Shown one piece after another: positions 1 to 63,949 of a DNA stretch of 64,000 bases (position 1 is the stretch's first letter; each line of letters opens with the position of its first letter). The translations under genes were made by a program, and so were the position numbers. The stretch spans positions 116,801 to 180,800 of IMG/VR virus record IMGVR_UViG_3300028603_000001; one strand, given 5' to 3'. This stretch comes from a virus. Taxonomy: Duplodnaviria; Caudoviricetes. The notes below the pieces were generated by a model. That model was not told the DNA's origin. It did not search any database and saw only the letters and a list, made by a program, of their open reading frames with translations.

Positions 1-188
1 ATTTTCCTGAATTAGGTTGGGGATATGCTCAGTTATCTTTTCAAGAATTATTAGCTATTAAAAGATTTTTAGAAGAAAATGTTGAAGATATCAAATTTCC
101 TGAACTCTTTAAAAACAAGTGGGAAGAAATAAAACAAATAACTTTAACTAATAGGATGTTAAATGATAATATTAAGGGGGTGAGTTAA
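1..188 (+). CDS. 3' end of hypothetical protein (truncated by window edge)
   Basis: Open frame from 3 (FPELGWGYAQLSFQELL...) to TAA at 186-188. Confidence 0.6.
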   Translation, partial: FPELGWGYAQLSFQELLAIKRFLEENVEDIKFPELFKNKWEEIKQITLTNRMLNDNIKGVS

Positions 189-189
189 T

Positions 190-1836
190 ATAAAAACATT
201 ATATAATTTTAAAAAATTTGTAGATGAAATTCTTGCAGATAATAGTAGAAATTATAAAATATCTGTACTTGAAAAATATAAAGATGATGAAGATATTAAA
301 TATTATTTAGATTTTATTTTCAATCCTTTTATTACTACTGGAATATCAGATAAAAAATTAAACAGATTAACTGAAACAGATTACACAACAAAGTTAAATA
401 CTATTAAAGATATTTTAGATTATTCTAAAACACATAATACAGGTAGTGATAAAGATTTATCAATAATATTTAGTAATCGAGATACTTTATTTGAAGATTT
501 TGATCCTAAATCATTAGTTGACATTGAATATTTTAGAGATAAATTATTTGGTAATTTAAAAGTCCCTAAACAATTTTTTGAATTCACTGATGATGCAGCT
601 GGATTTAGTGGAGGTTCTATATTATCAAGTAGATGTGATATTGAAGATAAAACAGTTAGATTAAATAAACTTAAATCGTTACTGGGTGATGCTATAGGTA
701 ATCCAGAAGTTATTAGTTATATTCAACAATATATTGATGGGTTATTAGCAGAAAAAGAAAGAAAGCAAGAACAAGATTTTCAAGATTTAGATGCATCGCT
801 ATATAATTTATTTAATAAAATTTTAATTAAAAATTTGCAACTAGGTGTTGATGTAAAAACTATAAATAAAGTAATTCCTAATTTAATACCGACATTTAAT
901 GTTATGTTAGCAAATAAATATTTTGATGATGTAAAATTCGTAGAAGGAAAAGAATTTGCTTTAACTACTAAAATTGATGGTGGACGTATTGTTGCAATTA
1001 AGAAAAATGGCGATGTTAAATTCTATACTCGCTCTGGTCAATTATACGAAGGTCTAGTTGATTTAGAAGAAGAAATGAAATTATATATGCCTGATAACAT
1101 TATGTTAGATGGGGAAATTACTTTATTAAATGATTATGAAGTATTATATGATTTAAAATATAATGAACCCTGTATTGGTCATAAATTAACATCAAAAGAG
1201 CAATATAAAGAAACTATGAAAATCACTAGAAAAGATGGTGAAAAACATGGTGTTAAAATGTTAGTGTTTGATGGAATGTCTGTTGAAGATTTTGAAAATC
1301 AAACTAATAGTGTTCCATATATCAACAGAAGGGGTAAGCTTGAAGAGTTTTGGAACCATGCGGAAAACTGTGGACATAAAATGATTTACTTTGAATTACT
1401 TCCTATTCTGTATCGAGGAACCGACTCATCTGAAATCACTAAATGGCTCAACTACAGCATTGAACATGGTGAAGAAGGCGTTATGATCAACATATGTGAT
1501 GCTCCTTATGAGTTTAAGCGAACTAAAAACTTATTAAAAGTTAAAAAGATGGATACATTAGATTTACGTGTCATAGATTTAGAATGCGGGACAAATGCAA
1601 ATAGCGACAGACTAGGAGCTTTCATTTGTGAATATAAAGATGGTAATATTGTAAAAGTTGGAACTGGTATTTCCCAAGAGCTGCGAATTGAAATATGGAA
1701 CAATAAAAAAGACTGGTTAAATACTATTATTGAAGTACAATTTTTTGAAGAGACTGAAAATGCTAACGGTGGAAAATCACTTAGATTCCCGGTATATAAA
1801 GGTAGACGATTAGATAAAAATATTCCAGATTATTAA
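190..1836 (+). CDS. lig: ATP-dependent DNA ligase; probable ATA start at 190, longer than the ORF-track call at 835
   Basis: Motifs TTKIDGGR (I), LDGEI (III), VFDG (IIIa), EEGVMI (IV), LLKVKK (V), SLRFP (VI). Frame is open back to TGA at 181-183. SD-like AAGGGGGTGAG precedes ATA at 190. Upstream part reads as a ligase N-terminal domain (NSRNYKISVLEKYK...HNTG). Confidence 0.9.
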   Translation: MKTLYNFKKFVDEILADNSRNYKISVLEKYKDDEDIKYYLDFIFNPFITTGISDKKLNRLTETDYTTKLNTIKDILDYSKTHNTGSDKDLSIIFSNRDTLFEDFDPKSLVDIEYFRDKLFGNLKVPKQFFEFTDDAAGFSGGSILSSRCDIEDKTVRLNKLKSLLGDAIGNPEVISYIQQYIDGLLAEKERKQEQDFQDLDASLYNLFNKILIKNLQLGVDVKTINKVIPNLIPTFNVMLANKYFDDVKFVEGKEFALTTKIDGGRIVAIKKNGDVKFYTRSGQLYEGLVDLEEEMKLYMPDNIMLDGEITLLNDYEVLYDLKYNEPCIGHKLTSKEQYKETMKITRKDGEKHGVKMLVFDGMSVEDFENQTNSVPYINRRGKLEEFWNHAENCGHKMIYFELLPILYRGTDSSEITKWLNYSIEHGEEGVMINICDAPYEFKRTKNLLKVKKMDTLDLRVIDLECGTNANSDRLGAFICEYKDGNIVKVGTGISQELRIEIWNNKKDWLNTIIEVQFFEETENANGGKSLRFPVYKGRRLDKNIPDY

Positions 1837-2001
1837 TGCATATATACATTTAACCCTTGATTCTCCAATAGAATTTTAAGTTCTCTTAACGTTTACTAAA
1901 TGGTTAATAACTTAACATCTAATAAGAATTATTAGCAAGACAACTGAAATTTACAAAATTAAAAAAATAAATTGTATATTATTATATATAATTAAAAATA
2001 T

Positions 2002-2027
2002 AAAAAATCTTAGCGATAAGGTTTTTT
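2002..2027 (+). terminator. Intrinsic terminator
   Basis: AAAAAATCTTA-GCGA-TAAGGTTTTTT hairpin with U tract. Confidence 0.6.
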
Positions 2028-2087
2028 ATTAGCTAAATTATACACATCAGGTTATTATAATATGTACCTGTAAACTATTTTATAATT

Positions 2088-2156
2088 AAAAGCCACACCA
2101 CAGGCAACTGTGGGCCGGAAAGCCAGAGGGACTCTCAGTAGTCAGCCGTGCTGCAG
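2088..2156 (+). promoter_or_regulatory. c-di-GMP-I (GEMM) riboswitch
   Basis: GCCACA-CCACAG GCAA CTGTGG-GCCGGAAAGCC-AGAGGGACT...AGTCAGCC..GCTGCA. GNRA-capped P1 and the GEMM junction are present, with a compensatory swap (usual GGC.../...CGCAAAG reads GCC.../...CGGAAAG). Abuts SD GAAAGAGG. Confidence 0.75.
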
Positions 2157-2168
2157 AAAGAGGTAATT

Positions 2169-2738
2169 ATGAAAAACAAAAAAGAAAAAATTAATTTAAG
2201 AAAATTTTTATTTGTACTACCCTTGCTTTTATTAGCTCTAATCACAACAGTAGTAGCTACTTTTGCTTGGTGGAATACGTTAACAGTTGAAAAAGATTTT
2301 GATGGAACAATTGGTGACTCAGTCGTATTAAAATTAACAGCTGCTGATTTCAGTGGTGTTCTGGTTCCTGAAGATGTATATGATAATGACGAAGATATTT
2401 TAAATCAAGGTTGGGTAAAAGTATGGTCAACAAACTTAAACTTTACTGTCGATAGAACAGATACAACAGGTGATTCTTTTGTATTAACTATCACACCTGT
2501 TAAAATTTTTGTTGATGGAGTTGATCGAAGTTCTTATTTTGATTTGAAAATTTTAGATGGTGAAGATGATGACCTAAGCTATGATATTAATACTGCTAAA
2601 ACTTTAACGTTAAAATTAAGTTTTAGAGATATATTAGAAGAAGAACAAGAGGAGGTTAGAACAACATTCGCAGGATTCGCAGGGGAACAGTTAACTATAA
2701 CAATTGAAGCAAAAATCACAGCACAACCACAACCCTAA
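2169..2738 (+). CDS. Secreted protein with SipW-class (TasA/camelysin-like) signal peptide
   Basis: SD then ATG at 2169; basic N-terminus, hydrophobic stretch, ATFAWW cleavage signature, beta-rich mature part. Confidence 0.7.
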   Translation: MKNKKEKINLRKFLFVLPLLLLALITTVVATFAWWNTLTVEKDFDGTIGDSVVLKLTAADFSGVLVPEDVYDNDEDILNQGWVKVWSTNLNFTVDRTDTTGDSFVLTITPVKIFVDGVDRSSYFDLKILDGEDDDLSYDINTAKTLTLKLSFRDILEEEQEEVRTTFAGFAGEQLTITIEAKITAQPQP

Positions 2739-2837
2739 GCTTCCCCTTTTACTAATTTATTTATCATCAATGTTACTAATATCACATAGTTCACTATTGT
2801 TGATCAATGTATTTTTAAAGAGAAAGAAGGGGATATT

Positions 2838-3416
2838 ATGAGTAAAATCTTATCAACAATTCTTGCTGTATTTATTTTTATATCTTTTCTCTCAAGTACG
2901 GACATATACGCTTATTGGAATAATTTAGAAATAACATATACAGTTACCGCACAAATAGGTGTATGGGATTACAAAATAATCCCTGACGAATGGAATCTTA
3001 ATATCTGGGAAGATGAAGATAATTTAAATCAGACAATTCCTGAAAACCAGTTATTCTCCTATAATGGTTTATTATATGTTGTAAGAGAGGGTGAGGTATA
3101 TAACCCACATTGGCATGGATTACCAGGTGAACCAAATACACAATGGGCTTATGTATCCCTTGAATTAGAATGGAGACCAAATATGAATTATCGAACATTA
3201 TCAGTTGTTGTCAGAGAAGGAAGATATTTTATAGCTAATCCAGCTTATAACGATAATTGGTTTGTTGGAGACCCATTAAATTCAGCGAATAAAGCATGGT
3301 CAGAATGGAGAGAAATAGAACAACTTCCAGAATCATATTTTGGCTTCTTATTAGATTATCCAATGGTAAAAGATTATCGCGCTAATATAGCTGATGTTAT
3401 CTTTATAACTAATTAA
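2838..3416 (+). CDS. Secreted protein, SipW-class signal peptide, CBM5/12-like aromatic repeats
   Basis: Signal ends IYAYWN; FSYNGLLY and WRPNMNY..SVVVREGRYF resemble carbohydrate-binding module repeats. Confidence 0.6.
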   Translation: MSKILSTILAVFIFISFLSSTDIYAYWNNLEITYTVTAQIGVWDYKIIPDEWNLNIWEDEDNLNQTIPENQLFSYNGLLYVVREGEVYNPHWHGLPGEPNTQWAYVSLELEWRPNMNYRTLSVVVREGRYFIANPAYNDNWFVGDPLNSANKAWSEWREIEQLPESYFGFLLDYPMVKDYRANIADVIFITN

Positions 3417-3432
3417 ACAAATTCAAATTATA

Positions 3433-3456
3433 AATCTTGGGAAACCAAGGTTTTTT
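3433..3456 (+). terminator. Intrinsic terminator
   Basis: AATCTTGG-GAAA-CCAAGGTTTTTT. Confidence 0.75.
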
Positions 3457-3521
3457 AATTTAATTAATTGTATATTATTATGAATGAATAAATCATAAAA
3501 TATAAATTTTTGGAGGTTAAA

Positions 3522-5819
3522 ATGAGAGTATTATTATTAATGAGAGGTGCTCCTGGTTGTGGTAAAACGACATGGATTAAAAACCATAATTTAGAAGATT
3601 ATACGTTATCACCAGATGAATTAAGAATTAAATGTAGTTCTCTAGAATTACAACCAACAGGTGAATTAAAAGTTTCACAAAATCAAGAAAATGAAAGTGC
3701 TGTTTGGAGTATTTTATTTAAACTTCTAGAACATAGAATGTCTCGTGGAGAGTTTACTGTTATAGACGCCACATGTTCTAAAACGAAAGATATTAAACAA
3801 TATAAAGAATTAGCTGATCAATATAGATATAGAATGTATATAGTTGATTTCACAAAAGTATCTTTAGAAACATGCCTAAAACAAAATAAAATGAGACCAG
3901 AACATAAATGGGTTCCAGAGAGAGCTATTGAAAATATCTATGCTAGATTTGCAACACAACAAATTCCCAGTGGTGTAACCATTATTCAACCAGATGATTT
4001 TGATGCAGTATTAGAAAAACCATTTGATGTTTCTGAATATAAAAGAATAGTATTTATTGGAGATATTCATGGATGTTATGATACACTAATGCAATATCCA
4101 GATTTTAAAAATGGTTTAAGAGATGATACAGAATATATTTTCTTAGGAGATTATATTGATAGAGGCAATCAAAATGCAGAAGTGTTGCATTGGTTATTCT
4201 CTATTATGAATAAACCAAATGTATGTTTATTAGAAGGAAATCATGAGAAGTGGATCAGGGATTATGGAAATAGTGTTCCTGCTAAATCAAGGGAGTTTGA
4301 ACATAAAACAAAACAGCAATTAATGAGCGGTGGTTTTGATGAAAAAATGGCAAGGATGTTATACAGGAAAGTAAGACAATTCTCTCATATTACATGGAAT
4401 GGAATTGAAATTTTAGCTTGCCACGCAGGAATCCCACATTTACAACATAATCTATTGTATGTTCCATCTATTGATTTTATTCAAGGTGTTGGAAAATATG
4501 CTGATTATTTAGCAGTTGCTGAAACATGGATGGGCAAAACAAACTTAAATCAATATCTAATTCATGGTCATAGAAATGTTGAAGGTGACGAAACACAAAT
4601 TGCCGATAGAGTATTCAATTTAGAAGGTAGAGTTGAATTTGGAGGTAAGTTAAGAATTGTTGAATTATCAATGGAATATTTAATGCCTGAATATGGTTAT
4701 ACTGCTGATGGAGGAAGAATCCCAATAGGTGTTATCACAACTCCAAGCTGGAATGTTGTTGAGTTAGATGATTGCCAACCAATTACAAAAGAGTTAAATA
4801 CAGAGGAACGAAAAGTTGAAACAGTAGCAGATGCAATTACATATTTACAAAATAATAAATATGTTCAAGAAAAAGCACTAGGCGATGGAATATCTTCATT
4901 TAATTTTACTAGAGAAGCTTTTTTTAAAGGTAACTGGAATAGACAGACTGTTCTAGCTAGAGGTTTATTTATAGACACGAAGAATAAAAAAATTATGGCT
5001 AGATCATATAAAAAGTTCTTTAATATTAATGAAGTTAGAGAAACTGAATTAGTATCACTAAGAGAAAAATTGCAATTTCCTGTAACTGCATACGTTAAAG
5101 AAAATGGATTTTTAGCTATTGTTTCTTATGATTATATTAACGATGATTTATTTATAGCTTCTAAATCAACCAATAAAGGTCCTTATGTGGAGTATATTAA
5201 AAAAGCTATTGAACCTTATCGAGAAAGGTTATTAGAATACTTTAGAGAATTATATAAGAGAGCTAACGACATTAACGGTCAAATAGCTACATTTGTATTT
5301 GAATGTATAGATGTTGAAAATGACCCACATATAATCAAGTACAATGAAAGTAAATTAATTCTATTAGATGTTATATTAAATAGCTTAGATTATAAAGCAC
5401 TTAATTACAAAGAATTAAACCTTGTTGCAAAATTAATACCAGATTGTCCTGTAAAAGAAAAAGCTTTTGAAATAAAAGACTGGGATGCGTTTAGAGACCT
5501 TTATAATGAAATTCAATCAGAAGAGTATCAATATAATGGAAAATATATTGAAGGATTTGTATTTGTTGACGAAGCTGGTTTTATGACTAAGTGTAAAACA
5601 GGTTATTATAATCAATGGAAGAAATTAAGGGGAATTACAGATCAAACTTTAAGACGTGGATATATCACTAAAACTGGTATGCTAACAACTTCTTTAGAAA
5701 ATATGTATTATGGATTTTTAAAAGACTTATATAAAAATGATTATAATAAAGAAACAAAAATTTATCCATATAAAACAGATATTATATCATTAAGAGAAAA
5801 GTTCTTAAAGGAGAATTAA
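3522..5819 (+). CDS. Trifunctional RNA repair enzyme: polynucleotide kinase, metallophosphoesterase, RNA ligase
   Basis: P-loop GAPGCGKT; GDIHG, GDYIDRG, GNHE; ligase KKFFN, KENG, EGFV. GGAGG SD before ATG 3522. Confidence 0.9.
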   Translation: MRVLLLMRGAPGCGKTTWIKNHNLEDYTLSPDELRIKCSSLELQPTGELKVSQNQENESAVWSILFKLLEHRMSRGEFTVIDATCSKTKDIKQYKELADQYRYRMYIVDFTKVSLETCLKQNKMRPEHKWVPERAIENIYARFATQQIPSGVTIIQPDDFDAVLEKPFDVSEYKRIVFIGDIHGCYDTLMQYPDFKNGLRDDTEYIFLGDYIDRGNQNAEVLHWLFSIMNKPNVCLLEGNHEKWIRDYGNSVPAKSREFEHKTKQQLMSGGFDEKMARMLYRKVRQFSHITWNGIEILACHAGIPHLQHNLLYVPSIDFIQGVGKYADYLAVAETWMGKTNLNQYLIHGHRNVEGDETQIADRVFNLEGRVEFGGKLRIVELSMEYLMPEYGYTADGGRIPIGVITTPSWNVVELDDCQPITKELNTEERKVETVADAITYLQNNKYVQEKALGDGISSFNFTREAFFKGNWNRQTVLARGLFIDTKNKKIMARSYKKFFNINEVRETELVSLREKLQFPVTAYVKENGFLAIVSYDYINDDLFIASKSTNKGPYVEYIKKAIEPYRERLLEYFRELYKRANDINGQIATFVFECIDVENDPHIIKYNESKLILLDVILNSLDYKALNYKELNLVAKLIPDCPVKEKAFEIKDWDAFRDLYNEIQSEEYQYNGKYIEGFVFVDEAGFMTKCKTGYYNQWKKLRGITDQTLRRGYITKTGMLTTSLENMYYGFLKDLYKNDYNKETKIYPYKTDIISLREKFLKEN

Positions 5820-5820
5820 T

Positions 5821-6072
5821 ATGAGCCCACGAGAACATTATCCTGAATTAACAACTGAACAATATTTGAATCTTAAAATAGGAGATTCAATTAAATATTT
5901 ATATTATGTTTTAGGTAATTACATTGAGCGCGGTGACGGAAAAATTGCAAAATTAATAATTAAAGGTAGTTCAGTCGACGATGGTTTTTATGAATATAAA
6001 TATGATAATCAGGTTATTTTAAGTAATGGAGCTAAAGTAACTTATTGTGATATAACTGAAGTGATTGAATAA
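5821..6072 (+). CDS. Hypothetical protein
   Basis: ORF with GGAG SD, co-oriented. Confidence 0.6.
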   Translation: MSPREHYPELTTEQYLNLKIGDSIKYLYYVLGNYIERGDGKIAKLIIKGSSVDDGFYEYKYDNQVILSNGAKVTYCDITEVIE

Positions 6073-6280
6073 AAACCAGAGGCAATATTTAATAATTACT
6101 TGAATAGAAGAATAGAAGTAGGAGCTATGTTGACATAAAAAATTATGTAATTAATTATGAGATATAAATATCAAACCTGCTGGAAGCTAAATATATGATA
6201 AAAATATGTCTATAGTGTCAAGTTGAAGAATTTAAATTGTAAATAAATATATAATAATGATTAAGGAGAGAAGAAAATAA

Positions 6281-6589
6281 ATGAAGAAATCGAGTTATAA
6301 ATTAAAAGACTTTGATATAGATTATTCTAAAGTTGTTAAATTAATTTGGAATGATATTGTTTTATATGATGATACATTAAGTTATTATGACCCAACTTTA
6401 GCTAGTGTTGAAACATTGAAAGAAATAAAAGTACAGTATATGGATAAAAATATTTATAATATCAATATGAATATAAAAAATGGTCGTGATATCGTGTTGA
6501 CTATTTTAGGAGAAAATGTGTTGACTGCTTTGTCAAAGAGTAGAATAAATATGAAACATTCTATTGATTCTATTGGAGGAGAAAATTAA
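6281..6589 (+). CDS. Hypothetical protein
   Basis: AAGGAG SD; stop overlaps dUTPase start. Confidence 0.6.
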   Translation: MKKSSYKLKDFDIDYSKVVKLIWNDIVLYDDTLSYYDPTLASVETLKEIKVQYMDKNIYNINMNIKNGRDIVLTILGENVLTALSKSRINMKHSIDSIGGEN

Positions 6590-7020
6590 TGTTTAATGTA
6601 TTCGGTGTTATTTTAGATGAAGGTGCTACAAAGCCTAGAAGAGCTCATGATAGTGATGCTGGTTTTGATTTGTTTAGTAGAGAAGATGCTGTGATAAAAG
6701 CTAGAAGTTATAAGATATTTGATACTGGTGTGCATATAAATATATTACCTGGATATGTTGGATTTATTAAGTCAAAGAGTGGGCTAAACGTGAAACATTC
6801 TATTGTAGGTGAAGGTGTTGTTGATGCTGGGTATACAGGTTCTATTATTGTAAAATTATATAATCATGGGACTGATGATTATGTAGTAATGAAGGGTGAT
6901 AAAATATCTCAGATTGTATTCTTAGAGTTACCTGTAATTGAATTAAGACAAGTATTCGAAGAAAATTTTGGTGTATATACTGAGCGGGGTACTGCTGGAT
7001 TTGGTTCGACAGGAAGATAA
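6589..7020 (+). CDS. dut: Trimeric dUTPase
   Basis: AGFDL, KSGL, GVVDAGYTG, KISQ, RGTAGFGSTG. Confidence 0.95.
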   Translation: MFNVFGVILDEGATKPRRAHDSDAGFDLFSREDAVIKARSYKIFDTGVHINILPGYVGFIKSKSGLNVKHSIVGEGVVDAGYTGSIIVKLYNHGTDDYVVMKGDKISQIVFLELPVIELRQVFEENFGVYTERGTAGFGSTGR

Positions 7021-7029
7021 TGACAAAAC

Positions 7030-7061
7030 AAAAAAGGCTATTTAAAATAACCTTTTTTTTT
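7030..7061. terminator. Bidirectional terminator at the convergence of the + and - blocks
   Basis: AAAAAAGGCTATTT...AAATAACCTTTTTT. Confidence 0.65.
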
Positions 7062-7086
7062 ATAATTTAACTAATAATGCGAAGGT

Positions 7087-7323
7087 TTATTCTTCTTCAT
7101 CTTCGCTTTCTTCTAAATTAGGTTTCTCTAAATCAGATATATCTTCTTTAGTTTCTTCAATATTTGGTATTTCTGTTTCTTCATATTCATAATCAATAAT
7201 ACTATTTACATCAGTATATAAGATACCAGTTGTCTTGTTTCTTATATATACATTCTTATCACTATAATTTCTGTATATTATATCACCTAAAATATGTACA
7301 ACTTCTCTAACTATCATTTTCAA
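7087..7323 (-). CDS. Small protein downstream of receptor-binding protein (possible fibre assembly factor)
   Basis: Overlaps upstream stop; assignment from position only. Confidence 0.5.
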   Translation of the reverse strand: MKMIVREVVHILGDIIYRNYSDKNVYIRNKTTGILYTDVNSIIDYEYEETEIPNIEETKEDISDLEKPNLEESEDEEE

Positions 7324-8666
7324 TAACCTCCATCAATTAATCTTCTATATGGAGAACTTGTACTGTTTGGTAAAGCAGATATTAATTCTAATCTCTTACT
7401 ACCATATACTATTATACCTGCACCATTATCTATACGGGTTTTAGAATTGATACTTTGGGATAATGAATTACCATCAGTAGGATATACACTAGCATTCCAA
7501 GTAATAGTTGATAATGAGTAACAGTTGTAAAGAAAATAATTTCCTATACTTGTTATGTTACTTAAATCTAAAGGTTGGTTGAATGAAAAACATTGTCTAA
7601 AGAAATTATTTCCAATACTTGTTATGTTACTTAAATCTAACGGTTGGTTGAATGAATAACAGTTGTAAAGAAAAAAATTTCCTATACTTGTTATGTTACT
7701 TAAATCCAGTGGTTGGTTGAATGAGTAACAATAACTCAAAAAATAATCACTAATACTTGTTATGTTGCTTAAATCCAGTGGTTGATTAAATGAATGACAA
7801 TAATACATAAAATTAACACCAATACTTGTTATGTTACTTAAATCTAACGGTTGATTAAATGAATGACAATAATACATAAAATTATTACCAATGCTGGTTA
7901 TGTTGCTTAAATCCAGTGGTTGATTAAATGAATAACAATAATTCATAAAAAGACCACCAATGCTGGTTATGTTACTTAAATCCAGTGGTTGATTAAATGA
8001 ATAACAATAATACATAAAATTAGCACCAACGCCGGTTATGTTACCAACTAAAGTATTTAGCACTTGATAACTATAAATTGTATTCCACGAATTTGAATTA
8101 GAAGAAAAAATAGGTGGACCAGCAGTTTCAATGAATTTATAATTTATGTCAATAGTTCCTTCACTACCATCAGGCATAATATTAGTATAAGCAAAAGTTA
8201 AACAGTTTGTGCCTGTTATATTTTCACCATAGTGTGCGTGTAGACCTTTGTATGTTAGTGTTTGATTTCCTTTAGTAAGAGTAATAGTAAAGTTTTTTAA
8301 AGATGATACATCACTAGATACATCAAATTCAACTAATACTTCTTTTGTTCCATTATTGGTAATAGTTGCTCTTCCTTCTAATCCTGAAATAGTAATATCA
8401 TAATCATTAGATTTGTAAATATGATTTACTTCTTTTTCGTTAACATTATCTTTATACGTTAATGGGATAGTAGCACCTGTAAATAATCCACTTGCTGAAG
8501 TTGTAGGAAATTCACCACTACCATTTCCACCACCTGATATTTCTAAAATTTTTGTGTGATAATCAGTAAACGGAACATCTTCCATCGCAACACCTTTATC
8601 AACTATCGCCTGTTTAATATTTTGTTTAACAGTATTTAATACTAATAACTTATCACTTATTGCCAT
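7320..8666 (-). CDS. Putative receptor-binding protein with BspA/DUF285-like leucine-rich repeats
   Basis: Tail-type N-terminus (KQNIKQAIVDKGV...PFTDY); 23-aa repeats FNQPLDLSNITSIGxxFxxxCxS. Confidence 0.75.
   Translation of the reverse strand: MAISDKLLVLNTVKQNIKQAIVDKGVAMEDVPFTDYHTKILEISGGGNGSGEFPTTSASGLFTGATIPLTYKDNVNEKEVNHIYKSNDYDITISGLEGRATITNNGTKEVLVEFDVSSDVSSLKNFTITLTKGNQTLTYKGLHAHYGENITGTNCLTFAYTNIMPDGSEGTIDINYKFIETAGPPIFSSNSNSWNTIYSYQVLNTLVGNITGVGANFMYYCYSFNQPLDLSNITSIGGLFMNYCYSFNQPLDLSNITSIGNNFMYYCHSFNQPLDLSNITSIGVNFMYYCHSFNQPLDLSNITSISDYFLSYCYSFNQPLDLSNITSIGNFFLYNCYSFNQPLDLSNITSIGNNFFRQCFSFNQPLDLSNITSIGNYFLYNCYSLSTITWNASVYPTDGNSLSQSINSKTRIDNGAGIIVYGSKRLELISALPNSTSSPYRRLIDGGY
7517..8040 (-). 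repeat. Coding tandem repeat, 69-nt unit, about 7.5 copies
   Basis: Near-identical DNA units visible. Confidence 0.9.
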
Positions 8667-8667
8667 A

Positions 8668-11600
8668 TTACACTCCTAATATTGCGTCTAACGCACTTTC
8701 TATATCGCCCAGCATTAAGTCTATCTCAGTCTTATTATATAACGCTGGTTTATTTTCAATATCTTGCCAATCAACTGTTCCTCCAATACCACCACTTGCA
8801 CTAATCACATTAGTAGTAGGGTTAATAGTAATATTATCACCTGCAACTAACTTATCTTGTTTTTCAGCTAATTCTTCATCAACATAATTTTTATTTACTA
8901 AATCTTCTTCATCAGTAGGTATTGCATTTGACTTAACTTTTTTATCTTCTTCTAAATACACATCGCCTTTAAGGTACGTTTTTTCAATTTCATCATTTCC
9001 CACTGTAATAGTATTATCACCATTTCCAATGGCTCTATTTCCAATAACGATTTCATTATTACTTGTTGAATTCTTAGCTCTTGTTCTTCCTCCTAAGAAT
9101 ACACCTTTATTAACAGTCGTTACGAATGAACCACCCTCTGTTCTTAATCCAGCTTGATAACCAAATGCAACATTTTCAGACCCTTGTGACGCTTGACCAA
9201 ATGCTTGGTATCCGATTGCGACACCTTCTATCATTTGGTTTATTGCTGAAAAGAATGCTGAATCTCCTATAGCAATTAAATGCTTTCCAGTACTATTTTT
9301 TATTAATGCTGCCCTACCTATTGCAATATTAAAATCGCCTTCAGTATTCGCATTTAAAGCAGTTGGACCTACAGCAATATTAAACTTACCTAACGATAAA
9401 GATTTTAATGCATCTGCCCCAAAAGCATAATTTCCTGTTCCTTGATAAGCCCATACTTTACCTTGTCCTACATTAACATTGCCTGCATTAGGACCTATAA
9501 ATATGTTATCACCATTTACAACATTAACTTCAACCCATTGACCTCCAGCTGCTATACATTTTTCTTCTGTATCATTTCCAGGTGCATTAATTGTACATCC
9601 CATACCTTCAAGAGCTTTTACAATTTTAAGCGCTTCTTCACCTTCATAATACATCACACCTGTAAAATCTGGGTTTTCTATATTAAGTTTATTAGATATA
9701 TCTAAAGTATGGTCTTCCCATTCTCCCCATACTTCTTCTCCAACTTGAACCCTTGAATATGTCTTACCTCCATGTGGGTCAAATAGCATTTGTGCTTTTC
9801 TTTCTTGGCCTGTTCCCCGCCATGTTTGAAGTAGAAAACCACCATCAATATAACCAGACGGGAATGTCCCTAAACCTACAGTACTAATATTGATGTAAAT
9901 AGTCCTTTCATCGCAGTCTGTGTCTATATTGAAATCATCCATACCCTCAAAGAAGTCAACAAAGTTATACTTACTTTCTAAATCTTTTGGACTAACAGTA
10001 TTTACTTCTGCACCCTCTTCTATACTACTCAACTTAGCTTTCTCTGCATCTGTGAATACATTAGTATCTGGATTTGCTTCATATAACTGCTTCACCTTCT
10101 CGGCTGTTATCTCTTCACTAATTTTATCATCAGTATATTCTTTCGCTTTATCAAAAATGACAATCAAATCTTTTTCATTTTTAAATCCCTCAATAAATAC
10201 ATACCAATTAGCGAATTGATTTTCAATATTAGTTTCTGGCCCATAAATGTTTTCATCTTTACCTGTTCCACCATATGTAACTAATCTACCTTCCCAAACT
10301 ACTGCCATTAAATACGCGATACCCATACCATAATCGTTATTCAAAAGTAAATCGACATCTTCTTCCCATTCATTCAATACGGGGTCGTAAACGTAAGTTT
10401 TACCACTCGTCCTTACTGGTGAAGAACTGCTAATATACCCACCAATAAGATAAATAAGTCCATCCCTAACAGCCATTGATGTATGACTTCTACTTTCTAT
10501 ATTAGCAACGCTTAATGGCTCAGACCAAGTTTCAGTATCAATATCATAAGCATAAAAAGTGTTTCTGTAAACATAGAGCTTCCTATTAACTATTTTAGAA
10601 CTTCCACCATCATTTGACATTGGTGGTGTAGGACCGAATGTCCAAGTGTCAGTTGCTATATCATAAATTGCAAGTCTTGGGGCGGTAAGCACACCTGCGG
10701 CACCAGTAGATTTTTCTTTTCTGGACCAATATCTTCCTGATATGTATATTTTACCATCTAAATGGTCTGCTCCACTTGATTGCATAGATGTATATAGATA
10801 ATCATCATCTTGTAAAGAGCTTAGTTCTTCATAAGTATTAGTTAAAGTATCATATTTATAATCGGGAGCAAATACAGAATCGAAAGGATAGAACTTATTT
10901 GTTCTACCAATACCTCCCAATATATAGATATCAGTTCCAACAGCAACGAGTGTTGGAGCATCTTTCCTATAAGGTAAGTCAAGATTTTCTTTCCAAGTGT
11001 TTGTTCTTAAATTATATGAAATATTTTTATTAGAAGCGCCATATAACGGTGGTGTTGCAGTAACATGAGATGTTCTTAACGTTCCACCTATCCAAAAAAT
11101 CTCATCGCCGACAATAGCACTACCTTGAATACGATTTGTTCCTATTTCATCTTTTCTTAAATAAATTGGGACTTCTCCTAATGCTTCCCAACCACGTTTT
11201 CTCTCTTGATATAAAACTTCATTCTCAAACGCTATTTTTGGGGTTTCATTAAAAACATTAGTTGATAATTTCTTCTCATCTTCAACACGTGTATCTACAT
11301 ACTCCTCTGTTATAAAATCTTCGTCATTTTCTAATTCGCTTACCTTTGTAATCTTAGGTATTGAGTTAATTTTACTATCTACCGAAGCATTAGTCGCAAA
11401 ATCGCTATCATTAACCAACTCGCTTGTTTTAGTAGGCATAGTCGGCTTATTACTTAAATCCCTATAATCGCCGCTAAATCCTTGTGGTAAATCAGCTTTC
11501 GTAACAACTACGTTATGGTTATCAAGTGTAATTTGGCTTATATATTTATTAGATTCAACATCACCATTTATAATATTAAGTTTAGGGGAACTTATTTCTA

Positions 11601-62910: not shown

Positions 62911-62984
62911 AGGGGCAACCAGGACTCGAACCTAGGATCTACGGATTAGCGGTCCGCTACTCTAACCAATTGAGTTACTGCCCC
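62911..62984 (-). tRNA. Atypical tRNA, anticodon GCT (Ser), short variable loop, C33, no encoded CCA
   Basis: GGGGCAG/TTGCCCC; GCGGA-CCGCTAA-TCCGT; GGTTCGAGTCC. Confidence 0.7.
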
Positions 62985-63006
62985 ATTATACTATATGTTA
63001 TAAAAG

Positions 63007-63074
63007 CGGAGATGAGGGATTCGAACCCTCTCAGGCCGCTAAGCCCTTTCCCACGTCGTCTAGAACAACTCTCC
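63007..63074 (-). pseudogene. Truncated tRNA-Ser-like remnant
   Basis: GGAGAGTTG...GAGGGTTCGAATCCCTC-ATCTCCG with a variable-arm-like hairpin; D and anticodon arms missing. Confidence 0.5.
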
Positions 63075-63110
63075 ATTTAAATACACATACTTTATGATTT
63101 ATATTTTAAT

Positions 63111-63198
63111 TGGTGGTGGGAAGTAGAATCGAACTACCCCACAGCGTGATTATACGTTTGTATATCTACACTTGCTCTGCCCACTGAGCTACCCCACC
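63111..63198 (-). tRNA. tRNA-like RNA with extended anticodon arm and CCA end
   Basis: GGTGGGG/TCCCACC-A-CCA; D arm GCTC..GAGC; T arm GGTAG TTCGATT CTACT; 20 nt between AGTGT and ACGCT. Confidence 0.65.
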
Positions 63199-63231
63199 TT
63201 AACATTTTTACTACATTTAATTATACACTAA

Positions 63232-63594
63232 TTAATTGTCATATTTAATAATAAAGCCATGTTTATTTTTATTTTTCATTATGTTGATCATATGTTCAGT
63301 TCCTTTTGATTTACCATCCCAGAAAGCAACTAAAATATCTCCTGCTTCAGCCATCTCTGTGTTACGAATATATCCTGCTGATTTTCCATATTTATCCCAA
63401 TCAGGTCTAAACTGCAATACTTTATAACCTTTATTATGAGCATATATCTCACCTAATTTATCTGCACCATTAGCTGTTCCTGATATAATAGTAATATCAT
63501 CTAATATATGTTCTTCTCTAATAATATCATCTAATGTTTCTTCTAATAATTTATAATCATTAAAAGTGCGAGTTCCTGCGATAATAACTTTCAT
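63232..63594 (-). CDS. SLOG family (DUF2493/YspA-like) protein
   Basis: IIAGTRTFNDY, ISGTANGAD, DWDKYGKSAGYIRN, AFWDGKSKGT. Confidence 0.85.
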   Translation of the reverse strand: MKVIIAGTRTFNDYKLLEETLDDIIREEHILDDITIISGTANGADKLGEIYAHNKGYKVLQFRPDWDKYGKSAGYIRNTEMAEAGDILVAFWDGKSKGTEHMINIMKNKNKHGFIIKYDN

Positions 63595-63618
63595 AATAAA
63601 CCTAACCTACTTTATAAA

Positions 63619-63692
63619 TGGAAACCTCGACTGGATTCGAACCAGTGATCAGAGTGTTGCAGACTCCTGCCTTGCCGCTTGGCTACGAGATC
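63619..63692 (-). tRNA. tRNA-Cys(GCA)
   Basis: GGAGT-CTGCAAC-ACTCT; U73; CCA. Confidence 0.9.
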
Positions 63693-63696
63693 ATTT

Positions 63697-63772
63697 TGGC
63701 GACTATGACGGGATTCGAACCCGCAATCTCCAGCGTGACAGGCTGGCACGATAACCGTTTCGCTACATAGCC
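63697..63772 (-). tRNA. tRNA-Asp(GTC)
   Basis: CCAGC-CTGTCAC-GCTGG; G73; CCA. Confidence 0.95.
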
Positions 63773-63781
63773 GTTTGTAAT

Positions 63782-63858
63782 TGGTGGGTCGAGTGAGATT
63801 CGAACTCACGCTTGATAGCTTCTAAAACTACTTTCTCTGCCAGTTGGAATACCGACCC
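63782..63858 (-). tRNA. tRNA-Leu(TAG), short variable loop
   Basis: GTAGT-TTTAGAA-GCTAT; A73; CCA. Confidence 0.85.
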
Positions 63859-63874
63859 TTGTATATGCTATAGA

Positions 63875-63949
63875 TGGTGTGATAAAAGGGAATCGAACCC
63901 TTATTCGTGGATTCACAGTCCACTGCGTTACCATTACGCCATTATCACC
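63875..63949 (-). tRNA. tRNA-His(GTG)
   Basis: GTGGA-CTGTGAA-TCCAC; G-1; A73; CCA. Confidence 0.9.

Follow-up and report, generated by a model that had tools for sequence, protein, structure and literature searches.

A c-di-GMP-I riboswitch before a mobile gene pair with TasA-type leaders in a large phage

Introduction

What could a phage do with a riboswitch that reads a second messenger of its host? The question is raised by a locus of an uncultured phage (Duplodnaviria; Caudoviricetes; G000 below) with a genome of 180.8 kb and a GC content of ~28%, held as IMG/VR record IMGVR_UViG_3300028603_000001. The record has direct terminal repeats and is rated complete. The window analysed here is its final 64 kb (64,000 nucleotides), to which all unprefixed positions refer. 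Near the start of the window a preliminary description, made by reading the sequence, had placed a moron in which a riboswitch of class I for cyclic diguanylate (c-di-GMP) controls two secreted proteins of the SipW type. The two proteins are called P1 and P2. The core of this cassette comprises the following elements.

2056–2061, + strand: TATAAT hexamer, read by eye from the sequence; candidate −10 element of the cassette's own promoter
2082–2158, + strand: c-di-GMP-I riboswitch aptamer (Rfam RF01051)
2155–2163, + strand: Shine–Dalgarno run of P1, with the core GAGG at 2160–2163; overlaps the 3′ end of the aptamer model
2169–2738, + strand: P1, 189 amino acids; TasA-type leader, then a modelled immunoglobulin (Ig)-like β-sandwich
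2838–3416, + strand: P2, 192 amino acids; leader of the same type, then two modules resembling carbohydrate-binding modules of families 5 and 12 (CBM5/12-like); own Shine–Dalgarno sequence

The aptamer, the recurrence of the cassette in unrelated phages and bacterial chromosomes, the leaders of the two proteins and the gene content of related bacteria are described in turn. On balance, and with some reserve, we hold it probable that this is a mobile accessory cassette for the c-di-GMP-gated export of fibre-type proteins.

The c-di-GMP-I aptamer

The covariance model RF01051 matches the + strand at 2082–2158; the match scores 45.8 bits where the gathering score is 35, and its E-value, calculated over the window as a whole, is 9.3e-6. 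The GEMM aptamer read by eye in the preliminary description is borne out. It is the sole match to this model in the entire 180.8-kb phage. In the alignment of the aptamer, G, A and C occupy the three ligand-contact positions, which we take to be equivalent to G20, A47 and C92 of Vc2. An A at Vc2 position 20 would suggest cyclic GMP–AMP (cGAMP) as the ligand, and a G at position 47 is the mark of the GGC variant. With 46.5 bits the match to the model of that variant stays under the cut-off of 59, and at the position of the model's G the window reads A. Since the contact bases are canonical and the GGC-variant score is below threshold, the ligand is predicted to be c-di-GMP and not cGAMP, and specificity of either alternative kind was rejected.

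The loop of the first helix is GCAA, of the GNRA type. The inner pair of this helix is C–G in the window and G–C in the family consensus, and had been described as a compensatory base-pair swap. This is upheld by an alignment of nine riboswitches from cassettes and hosts (the window and eight relatives), where both states are found: G–C in five copies and C–G in four, the latter being the window, the phage-like contig L003 and two chromosomal copies in genome G003 that precede P1-like genes. Double compensatory changes occur at 10 of the 15 predicted pairs of this alignment. Two DNA patterns derived from the riboswitch, searched against viral contigs, gave no further copies of the cassette.

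The cassette in other phages and chromosomes

A complete phage of 91.7 kb with terminal repeats, unrelated to G000, carries the cassette at locus L002 (genome G001). The order there is a c-di-GMP-I riboswitch (50.2 bits), a P1-like gene, a 76-amino-acid membrane open reading frame (ORF) and a P2-like gene. The unit lies directly after two holin genes and ahead of a reverse transcriptase gene, a neighbourhood quite unlike that in G000. L003, a 5-kb phage-like contig binned with a Bacteroidales metagenome-assembled genome (MAG), has a riboswitch (43 bits) followed by P1-like and P2-like genes. On a contig of the Acholeplasmataceae MAG G004 (L005) a P1-like gene, the membrane ORF and a P2-like gene stand at the contig end, next to chromosomal genes of ordinary kinds. 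Two P1-like genes and one P2-like gene are followed by three ORFs on a 61-kb metagenome contig (L012), where two of the three match the archaeal-type/SipW signal peptidase model TIGR02228 at 38 and 17 bits, under its cut-off. At chromosome locus L004 a P2-like gene stands alone, with no riboswitch or SipW nearby. Relatives of P2 occur in 2 of 22 genomes of the family to which G004 belongs, one of them only a weak match to the leader, and such rarity fits a mobile element.

The membrane ORF between the P1-like and P2-like genes is conserved, with 71–76 amino acids (L002:5907–6137 and L005:572–787), and may have a part in anchoring or assembly. The 99-nt spacer between P1 and P2 in the window lacks it. 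A 45-amino-acid ORF at 2704–2841 is regarded as spurious; it starts with TTG, has no Shine–Dalgarno sequence and is unlike the small membrane ORF of L002 and L005.

Some further features of these contigs were observed. Besides the reverse transcriptase gene just 3′ of its cassette, G001 has a transfer-messenger RNA gene (RF00023, 99.9 bits); the two features are at L002:7292–8494 and 10683–11038. Immediately upstream of the riboswitch in L003 are a tRNA with a long extra arm (2705–2791) and a skipping-rope RNA (RF02924, 42.5 bits, 2867–2956). Within L012:5602–7146 the first ORF gives a weak full-length SipW match and the second has no peptidase match; the last is the only one with a clear S-M-E-P catalytic-type motif, is short, covers the first half of the model only and may be truncated.

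Borders and variability of the locus

In G000 the cassette is set between a DNA ligase gene and a Pnkp-like gene, with a pair of hairpins and a pair of repeats at its borders.

835–1836: ATP-dependent DNA ligase gene, 5′ neighbour of the cassette
1970–1985, + strand: promoter-like 16-mer, copy A; exact repeat of 3466–3481
2000–2029, + strand: hairpin resembling a terminator, flanked by an A-run and a U-run and lying upstream of the cassette (−9.3 kcal/mol, z −4.3)
3432–3453, + strand: intrinsic terminator closing the cassette, from a terminator scan (−10.0 kcal/mol)
3466–3481, + strand: promoter-like 16-mer, copy B, ahead of the gene for Pnkp/RNA ligase
3522–5819: kinase-phosphatase-RNA ligase (Pnkp-like) gene, 3′ neighbour of the cassette

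The ligase–Pnkp site was compared among ten viral contigs encoding Pnkp relatives. In L028 the ligase passes to Pnkp over 225 bp, with a terminator and a promoter-like motif as the only elements between them and no cassette. L036, with a ligase 81% identical to that of G000, retains in the gap a c-di-GMP-I riboswitch of 57.7 bits together with a remnant of 10 codons whose start resembles that of P1, and L032 and L033 have 5 kb of other genes at the site. From this variation the site is a variable hot spot and the cassette an accessory element. The term moron is thus apt for a unit that is absent, decayed or replaced in relatives and that has its own promoter region and terminator. L036 also has a 444-amino-acid ORF (L036:1385–2719) directly after the intact ligase gene, whose N-terminal part resembles a homing endonuclease and contains short basic motifs in repeated form, and which continues into a second ligase 3′ end, the duplicated part being the last ~100 residues of the ligase. 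The arrangement suggests that a homing element inserted here and duplicated the 3′ end of the gene.

The two flanking terminators had been noted as similar, and are so: they have the common flanks AAAUCUU...AAGGUUUUUU, and neither hairpin was matched in fold by any of 200 shuffled sequences. The 16-mer copies at 1970 and 3466, taken in the preliminary description as consistent with insertion, are indeed exact repeats. The explanation given for them did not hold, however, because the motif recurs throughout the genome as a promoter-like element and is no insertion footprint; an insertion scar was therefore rejected. There are 16 sites with up to two mismatches, of consensus about WATTGTATATTATWAT, and 15 of these have the orientation of the genes and are placed either ahead of a start codon or ribosome site or in an intergenic position. 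Most are 20–70 nt before the ribosome site and several follow a terminator. The sites in the window are at 1970, 3466, 27673 (− strand) and 61136 (− strand), and an equivalent motif precedes Pnkp in L036 and L028. The 16-mer accompanies the + strand block of genes for DNA metabolism, an association that would favour early or middle over late expression. A late-type motif that had been proposed at 2031 was discarded, with 13 matches against 11 expected by chance. Recombination between repeated regulatory elements is a plausible route of gain and loss of the cassette.

The leader sequences

Both proteins start with a basic stretch and a hydrophobic segment. These are followed, as first described, by TFAWW in P1 (residues 31–35) and IYAYW in P2 (residues 23–27), with predicted cleavage after Ala33 (TFA/WW) and Ala25 (IYA/YW), respectively. 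The pattern [TS]-x-[FY]-A-[WY]-[WF] at the end of the hydrophobic segment is kept across the P1 and P2 families. A conserved glycine lies 14–16 residues beyond the motif in P1 and P2. P1 and P2 are the only two ORFs of the whole phage with such a leader.

For comparison, matches to the Pfam family PF12389 (TasA/camelysin, Peptidase_M73) were taken from the bacterial class of the carrier genome G004. These proteins have leaders ending in TYAWF, TYALF or VYAWF, in register with the motifs of P1 and P2, and across all three groups the glycine is found 12–16 residues on. In profile–profile alignment (hhalign) the P1 family aligns with the PF12389 matches with a probability of 91% (E = 9e-7, residues 1–58), the P2 family does so with 86%, and the P1 leader aligns with the P2 leader with 95%, scores that common hydrophobic composition may inflate. 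Homology of the P1 and P2 leaders with those of the TasA family is supported by these alignments.

The preliminary description found no SipW in the window, and this extends to the whole phage: no SipW-type peptidase (TIGR02228) is encoded in G000 or in G001. Nor were GGDEF or EAL proteins found in G000. Lacking all three, the phage must rely on its host for both peptidase and signal. Judged from the leaders, cleavage of P1 and P2 is probably the work of a SipW.

Families and folds of P1 and P2

Pfam, NCBIfam and PHROGs hold no family for P1 or P2, and profile searches of PDB sequences with either protein gave chance matches only. Among 1.8 billion representative sequences P1 has three close relatives and about ten distant ones at E < 1e-3; P1 alone found no relative among viral contigs. 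P2 has 16 homologues, with 34 invariant columns that are rich in Trp, Tyr and Phe, and is 92% identical to another natural copy.

The AlphaFold model of P1 (mean predicted local distance difference test score, pLDDT, 73) consists of an N-terminal helix, continuous from residue 10 to residue 37, and a β-sandwich. Its fold matches are generic (Z 4.5–6.1), and comprise VP37 of white spot syndrome virus (WSSV), type I fimbrial proteins, the Csu and CS20 pili and Ig-like adhesin domains. Foldseek against the PDB gave nothing below E = 0.001. In a protein atlas the nearest annotated neighbour of P1 is a TasA-family cluster (0.93, 192 shared features). Past residue 58 no resemblance to TasA is detectable, and the likeness is shown for the first ~58 residues only, the body being a generic Ig-like sandwich.

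The model of P2 has a mean pLDDT of 72. Residues 53–162 superpose on the CBM pair (336–433) of the Vibrio cholerae chitin deacetylase 4NY2 over 92 residues, with an rmsd (root mean square deviation) of 3.0 and a Z of 5.4, which is modest, being below 8. The next structural match has a Z of 3.2, the best of those below are mostly chitin-binding modules of chitinases and lytic polysaccharide monooxygenases, and 32 chains reach a Z of 2. Foldseek finds the same 4NY2 target with a probability of 0.97–0.99 (E about 0.01), and the atlas places P2 with CBM_5_12 clusters (0.91), which are commonest in Mycoplasmatota. A CBM5/12-like fold of P2 is supported by these models. The pair had been described as TasA-like and CBM-like; the second term suits P2, while for P1 the first is shown for the leader only.

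A c-di-GMP regulon in the carrier genomes

G003 and G004 are MAGs of 1.0–1.2 Mb and are Acholeplasmataceae-like. Each carries a SipW-type peptidase (TIGR02228) above the cut-off elsewhere in the genome. In G003 a c-di-GMP-I riboswitch stands directly before one P1-like gene on one contig and before two on another. In G004 a single locus (L024; G004:C10:21000–31002) has, in order, three GGDEF/EAL genes, followed by tandem c-di-GMP-I riboswitches (5235–5312 and 5361–5440). Next come a 338-amino-acid protein with the leader TYAWF, a membrane protein and a 303-amino-acid protein with the leader TYAWI. The locus ends with a third riboswitch (8181–8259), SipW and a membrane/coiled-coil P-loop gene that is cut by the contig end. 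The same riboswitch class thus precedes P1-like genes, proteins with the same leader and SipW, which together form a host regulon. The phage cassette matches this c-di-GMP-controlled regulon of its likely hosts.

L024 may be a CoCoPALM-type locus, and coiled-coil genes also flank SipW in L006 and L007; a McrB-like identity of the P-loop gene of G004 was not confirmed. No penicillin-binding transpeptidase was found in G003 or G004, and there are one or two matches of the Mur-ligase type, whereas the Bacteroidales MAG G002 has both the transpeptidase and Mur ligases. On these grounds G003 and G004 look wall-less, though as MAGs they are incomplete.

The expression platform and the direction of switching

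The aptamer ends at 2158, 2 nt before the core GAGG (2160–2163) of the Shine–Dalgarno run, and the ATG of P1 follows at 2169. The earlier placement of the aptamer against the Shine–Dalgarno sequence was therefore correct. There is no space for a terminator between aptamer and ATG, so control of P1 must be exerted at translation initiation or on the fate of the mRNA. The separation of 2 nt from the ribosome-binding site makes translation initiation the most likely level. A consensus promoter scan listed no site at the TATAAT hexamer (2056–2061).

Folding predicts an 11-bp helix of 2078–2088 with 2164–2174, which encloses the aptamer and buries the AUG; an alternative predicted pairing is that of CUCU (2132–2135) with part of the Shine–Dalgarno sequence. 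The z-scores of the platform folds of the window against shuffled controls are not significant. The related copies were compared for their layout. In L025 and L018, both chromosomal, aptamer and terminator overlap, the former with its 3′ end and the latter with its 5′ arm, and at the phage locus L002 an anti-Shine–Dalgarno sequence overlaps the 3′ strand of the closing helix of the aptamer (the P1 helix). All three layouts are of the kind where ligand binding turns expression on, and for this reason we lean towards an ON switch in the window also. By this analogy, expression of P1 at high c-di-GMP is the somewhat better supported direction.

The preliminary description had both genes under riboswitch control. 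P2 has its own Shine–Dalgarno sequence and there is no terminator between P1 and P2. Direct control is consequently evident for P1 alone, as had been claimed, and P2, for which the claim was not sustained, could be reached through transcript-level effects only.

Discussion

The mechanism that we propose begins with a moron in a probably virulent phage of 181 kb, consisting of a promoter region, a c-di-GMP-I riboswitch, two genes for putatively exported proteins and a terminator. A virulent habit is suggested by searches of G000 and G001, in which no tyrosine integrase or serine recombinase (resolvase) was found, and lysogenic conversion was set aside on the same result. The phage has neither cyclase nor phosphodiesterase, and the riboswitch would hence read the c-di-GMP pool of the host. 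At high c-di-GMP expression would probably be turned on, P1 and P2 would enter the Sec pathway by their TasA/camelysin-type leaders, and a host SipW-type signal peptidase would probably cut after TFA and IYA. P1, with its Ig-like β-sandwich, would be a subunit of the fibre or pilin-like kind. Because P2 shares the N-terminal segment of P1, this glycan-binding protein with tandem CBM5/12-like modules could enter the P1 fibre, or form its cap, as an adhesin. The phage would thus probably alter the surface of the infected cell according to the 'settle down' signal of host c-di-GMP.

A number of observations weigh against this account. TIGR04088, the model of SipW-cognate signals with which the leaders were to be checked, matches neither P1 nor P2 at E up to 10, and has no match in six-frame searches of G000 or G001, so that this check named in the preliminary description came out negative. 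PF12389 and PF02839 do not match P1 or P2 by sequence (PF02839 none at E up to 0.1), and hydrophobic composition may account for part of the leader scores. TasA is not among the fold matches of P1, which are generic with a Z of at most 6.1, the match of P2 is modest and both models have a mean pLDDT of about 72–73. The minimum-free-energy fold of the window, with the AUG in the aptamer-enclosing helix, is equally compatible with an OFF switch, and control of P2 is indirect. The carrier genomes are incomplete MAGs.

An alternative is that P1 and P2 stay uncleaved in the membrane, held by a type II anchor helix with their β domains coating the cell, for example in receptor masking or superinfection exclusion, and with SipW uninvolved. 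The TIGR04088 result and the lack of a peptidase in the phage would then be expected, and P1 residues 10–37 are modelled as a single long helix. The top fold matches of P1 include the WSSV envelope proteins VP37, VP24 and VP28, which are proteins with an N-terminal anchor and a β-barrel. Yet the motif [TS]-x-[FY]-A-[WY]-[WF] is kept in both families and in register with the PF12389 leaders, and in L012 the P1-like and P2-like genes lie beside SipW-like genes, so that we think the anchored form unlikely. The gene order of L012 also tells against P1 and P2 being secreted in the ordinary way, processed by the general signal peptidase I and engaged in a non-fibre role such as glycan scavenging or attack on neighbours, where shared c-di-GMP regulation would be the whole of the link to SipW. 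T-F-A and I-Y-A do fit the general −3/−1 rule of signal peptidases, neither protein has a sequence family, and the P2-like gene of L004 stands alone with no riboswitch or SipW near. The aromatic pair after the alanine and the glycine 12–16 residues on are, however, conserved in P1, P2 and the TasA-family matches, and this possibility seems to us slighter still.

Two further explanations concern what the cassette does for the phage. P1 and P2 might be decoys that jam a host SipW fibre or a CoCoPALM-type, McrBC-linked pilus module, in counter-defence or escape from biofilm. CoCoPALM systems are described as homologues of McrBC with linked pilus-assembly genes of the signal-peptidase kind (PMC11090510). 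The membrane/coiled-coil P-loop gene comes next after SipW in G004, SipW is flanked by coiled-coil genes in L006 and L007, and P2 has a P1-like leader and N-terminal segment with no sandwich to accept a strand. Against this, the McrB-like identity is unconfirmed and the same cassette is present on bacterial chromosomes, where a decoy makes little sense; we would be surprised if it proved correct. Least credible to us is that G000 carries the cassette as a passenger in decay, without any role at present. L036 has kept its riboswitch with a mere 10-codon remnant of P1, and in the window a terminator-like hairpin stands between promoter copy A and the riboswitch. In G000, however, neither ORF is damaged and each has a good ribosome site. 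P2 shares 92% identity with another natural copy, 34 columns are invariant in its family, and the aptamer is above the Rfam cut-off with its contact bases kept.

The c-di-GMP-gated export of fibre-type proteins by a mobile cassette, to which we return, can be extended to a fuller picture that is more tentative in each of its parts. Large and probably virulent phages of small, wall-less-looking Acholeplasmataceae-like bacteria might trade a c-di-GMP-gated module that uses the SipW fibre machinery of the host, which is a possibility rather than an expectation. It is conceivable, if doubtful, that P1 is the fibre subunit and P2 a glycan-binding cap that donates an N-terminal strand but does not accept one. 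We put forward with similar caution the outcome that infected sessile cells would stick to particles or neighbours, or that the module would block a fibre system of the host or one of CoCoPALM type.

That phages carry c-di-GMP riboswitches has been known for as long as the class itself; the variant here is that the cargo is a mobile exported pair with TasA-type leaders. The riboswitches Cdi1_4 and Cdi1_5 lie in the lysis modules of PhiCD119-type prophages of Clostridioides difficile (PMC3649979). These have in common with the present cassette a phage-borne class I aptamer that reads a host messenger, and the cassette of G001 is likewise beside holin genes. The PhiCD119-type phages are temperate prophages in which small lysis-module genes are controlled, whereas the present phages have no integrase and their cargo is a conserved pair with TasA-type leaders. 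The present cassette, unlike the PhiCD119-type riboswitches, moves between unrelated phages and bacterial chromosomes.

The leaders of the tapA-sipW-tasA (Bacillus subtilis) and sipW-bsaA (Clostridium perfringens) systems similarly have a small residue, Ala and aromatic residues, and these systems comprise a major subunit with accessory secreted proteins. In C. perfringens SipW is required for export and polymerization of BsaA (PMC7395162). The subunits of both systems need their dedicated SipW for secretion and polymerization, but the bodies of P1 and P2 have no detectable similarity to PF12389 and the phage has no peptidase. Regulation is by SinR or BsaRS in those systems and by a riboswitch here. 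The likely hosts are apparently without a cell wall, so anchoring must differ. A c-di-GMP riboswitch also precedes adhesin or fibre genes in C. difficile CD2831 and pilA1 and in Bacillus thuringiensis Bc2-cap (PMC3649979, PMC11218506); these belong to other protein families, are exported by sortase or type IV pilus routes and are all chromosomal. P2 superposes on the CBM5/12 pair of 4NY2 and has many invariant aromatic residues, but differs from it in having a TasA-type leader and neither a catalytic partner nor a match to PF02839. With CoCoPALM (PMC11090510) the carrier genomes share signal-peptidase genes beside coiled-coil proteins and a possible McrB-like P-loop protein; the phage cassette itself holds no CoCoPALM components, and the carrier loci are candidates only. 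Our literature searches found no paper linking a c-di-GMP riboswitch to SipW or TasA-type proteins, and none on c-di-GMP function in Acholeplasma.

The reading of the preliminary description is largely right, and the cargo, we think, comes from a c-di-GMP/SipW fibre regulon found in small bacteria of Mollicutes-like type. The switch and its defined cargo move together among unrelated phages and bacterial chromosomes, which offers a testable case in which a phage without integrase would tie surface-protein expression to the biofilm signal of its host. Two unannotated protein families with a common TasA-type leader are defined. The analysis points to c-di-GMP-controlled fibres in apparently wall-less Mollicutes-like bacteria, and would link those fibre loci to the little-studied CoCoPALM-type neighbourhoods. 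If the proposal is true, a lytic phage would here remodel the surface of its host in a manner gated by a second messenger.

Other features of the phage genome

Positions 1–8000 of the window gave no match by megablast to a GenBank phage collection. Five tRNA genes are clustered at 62911–63948 on the − strand, close to the right end of the phage genome.

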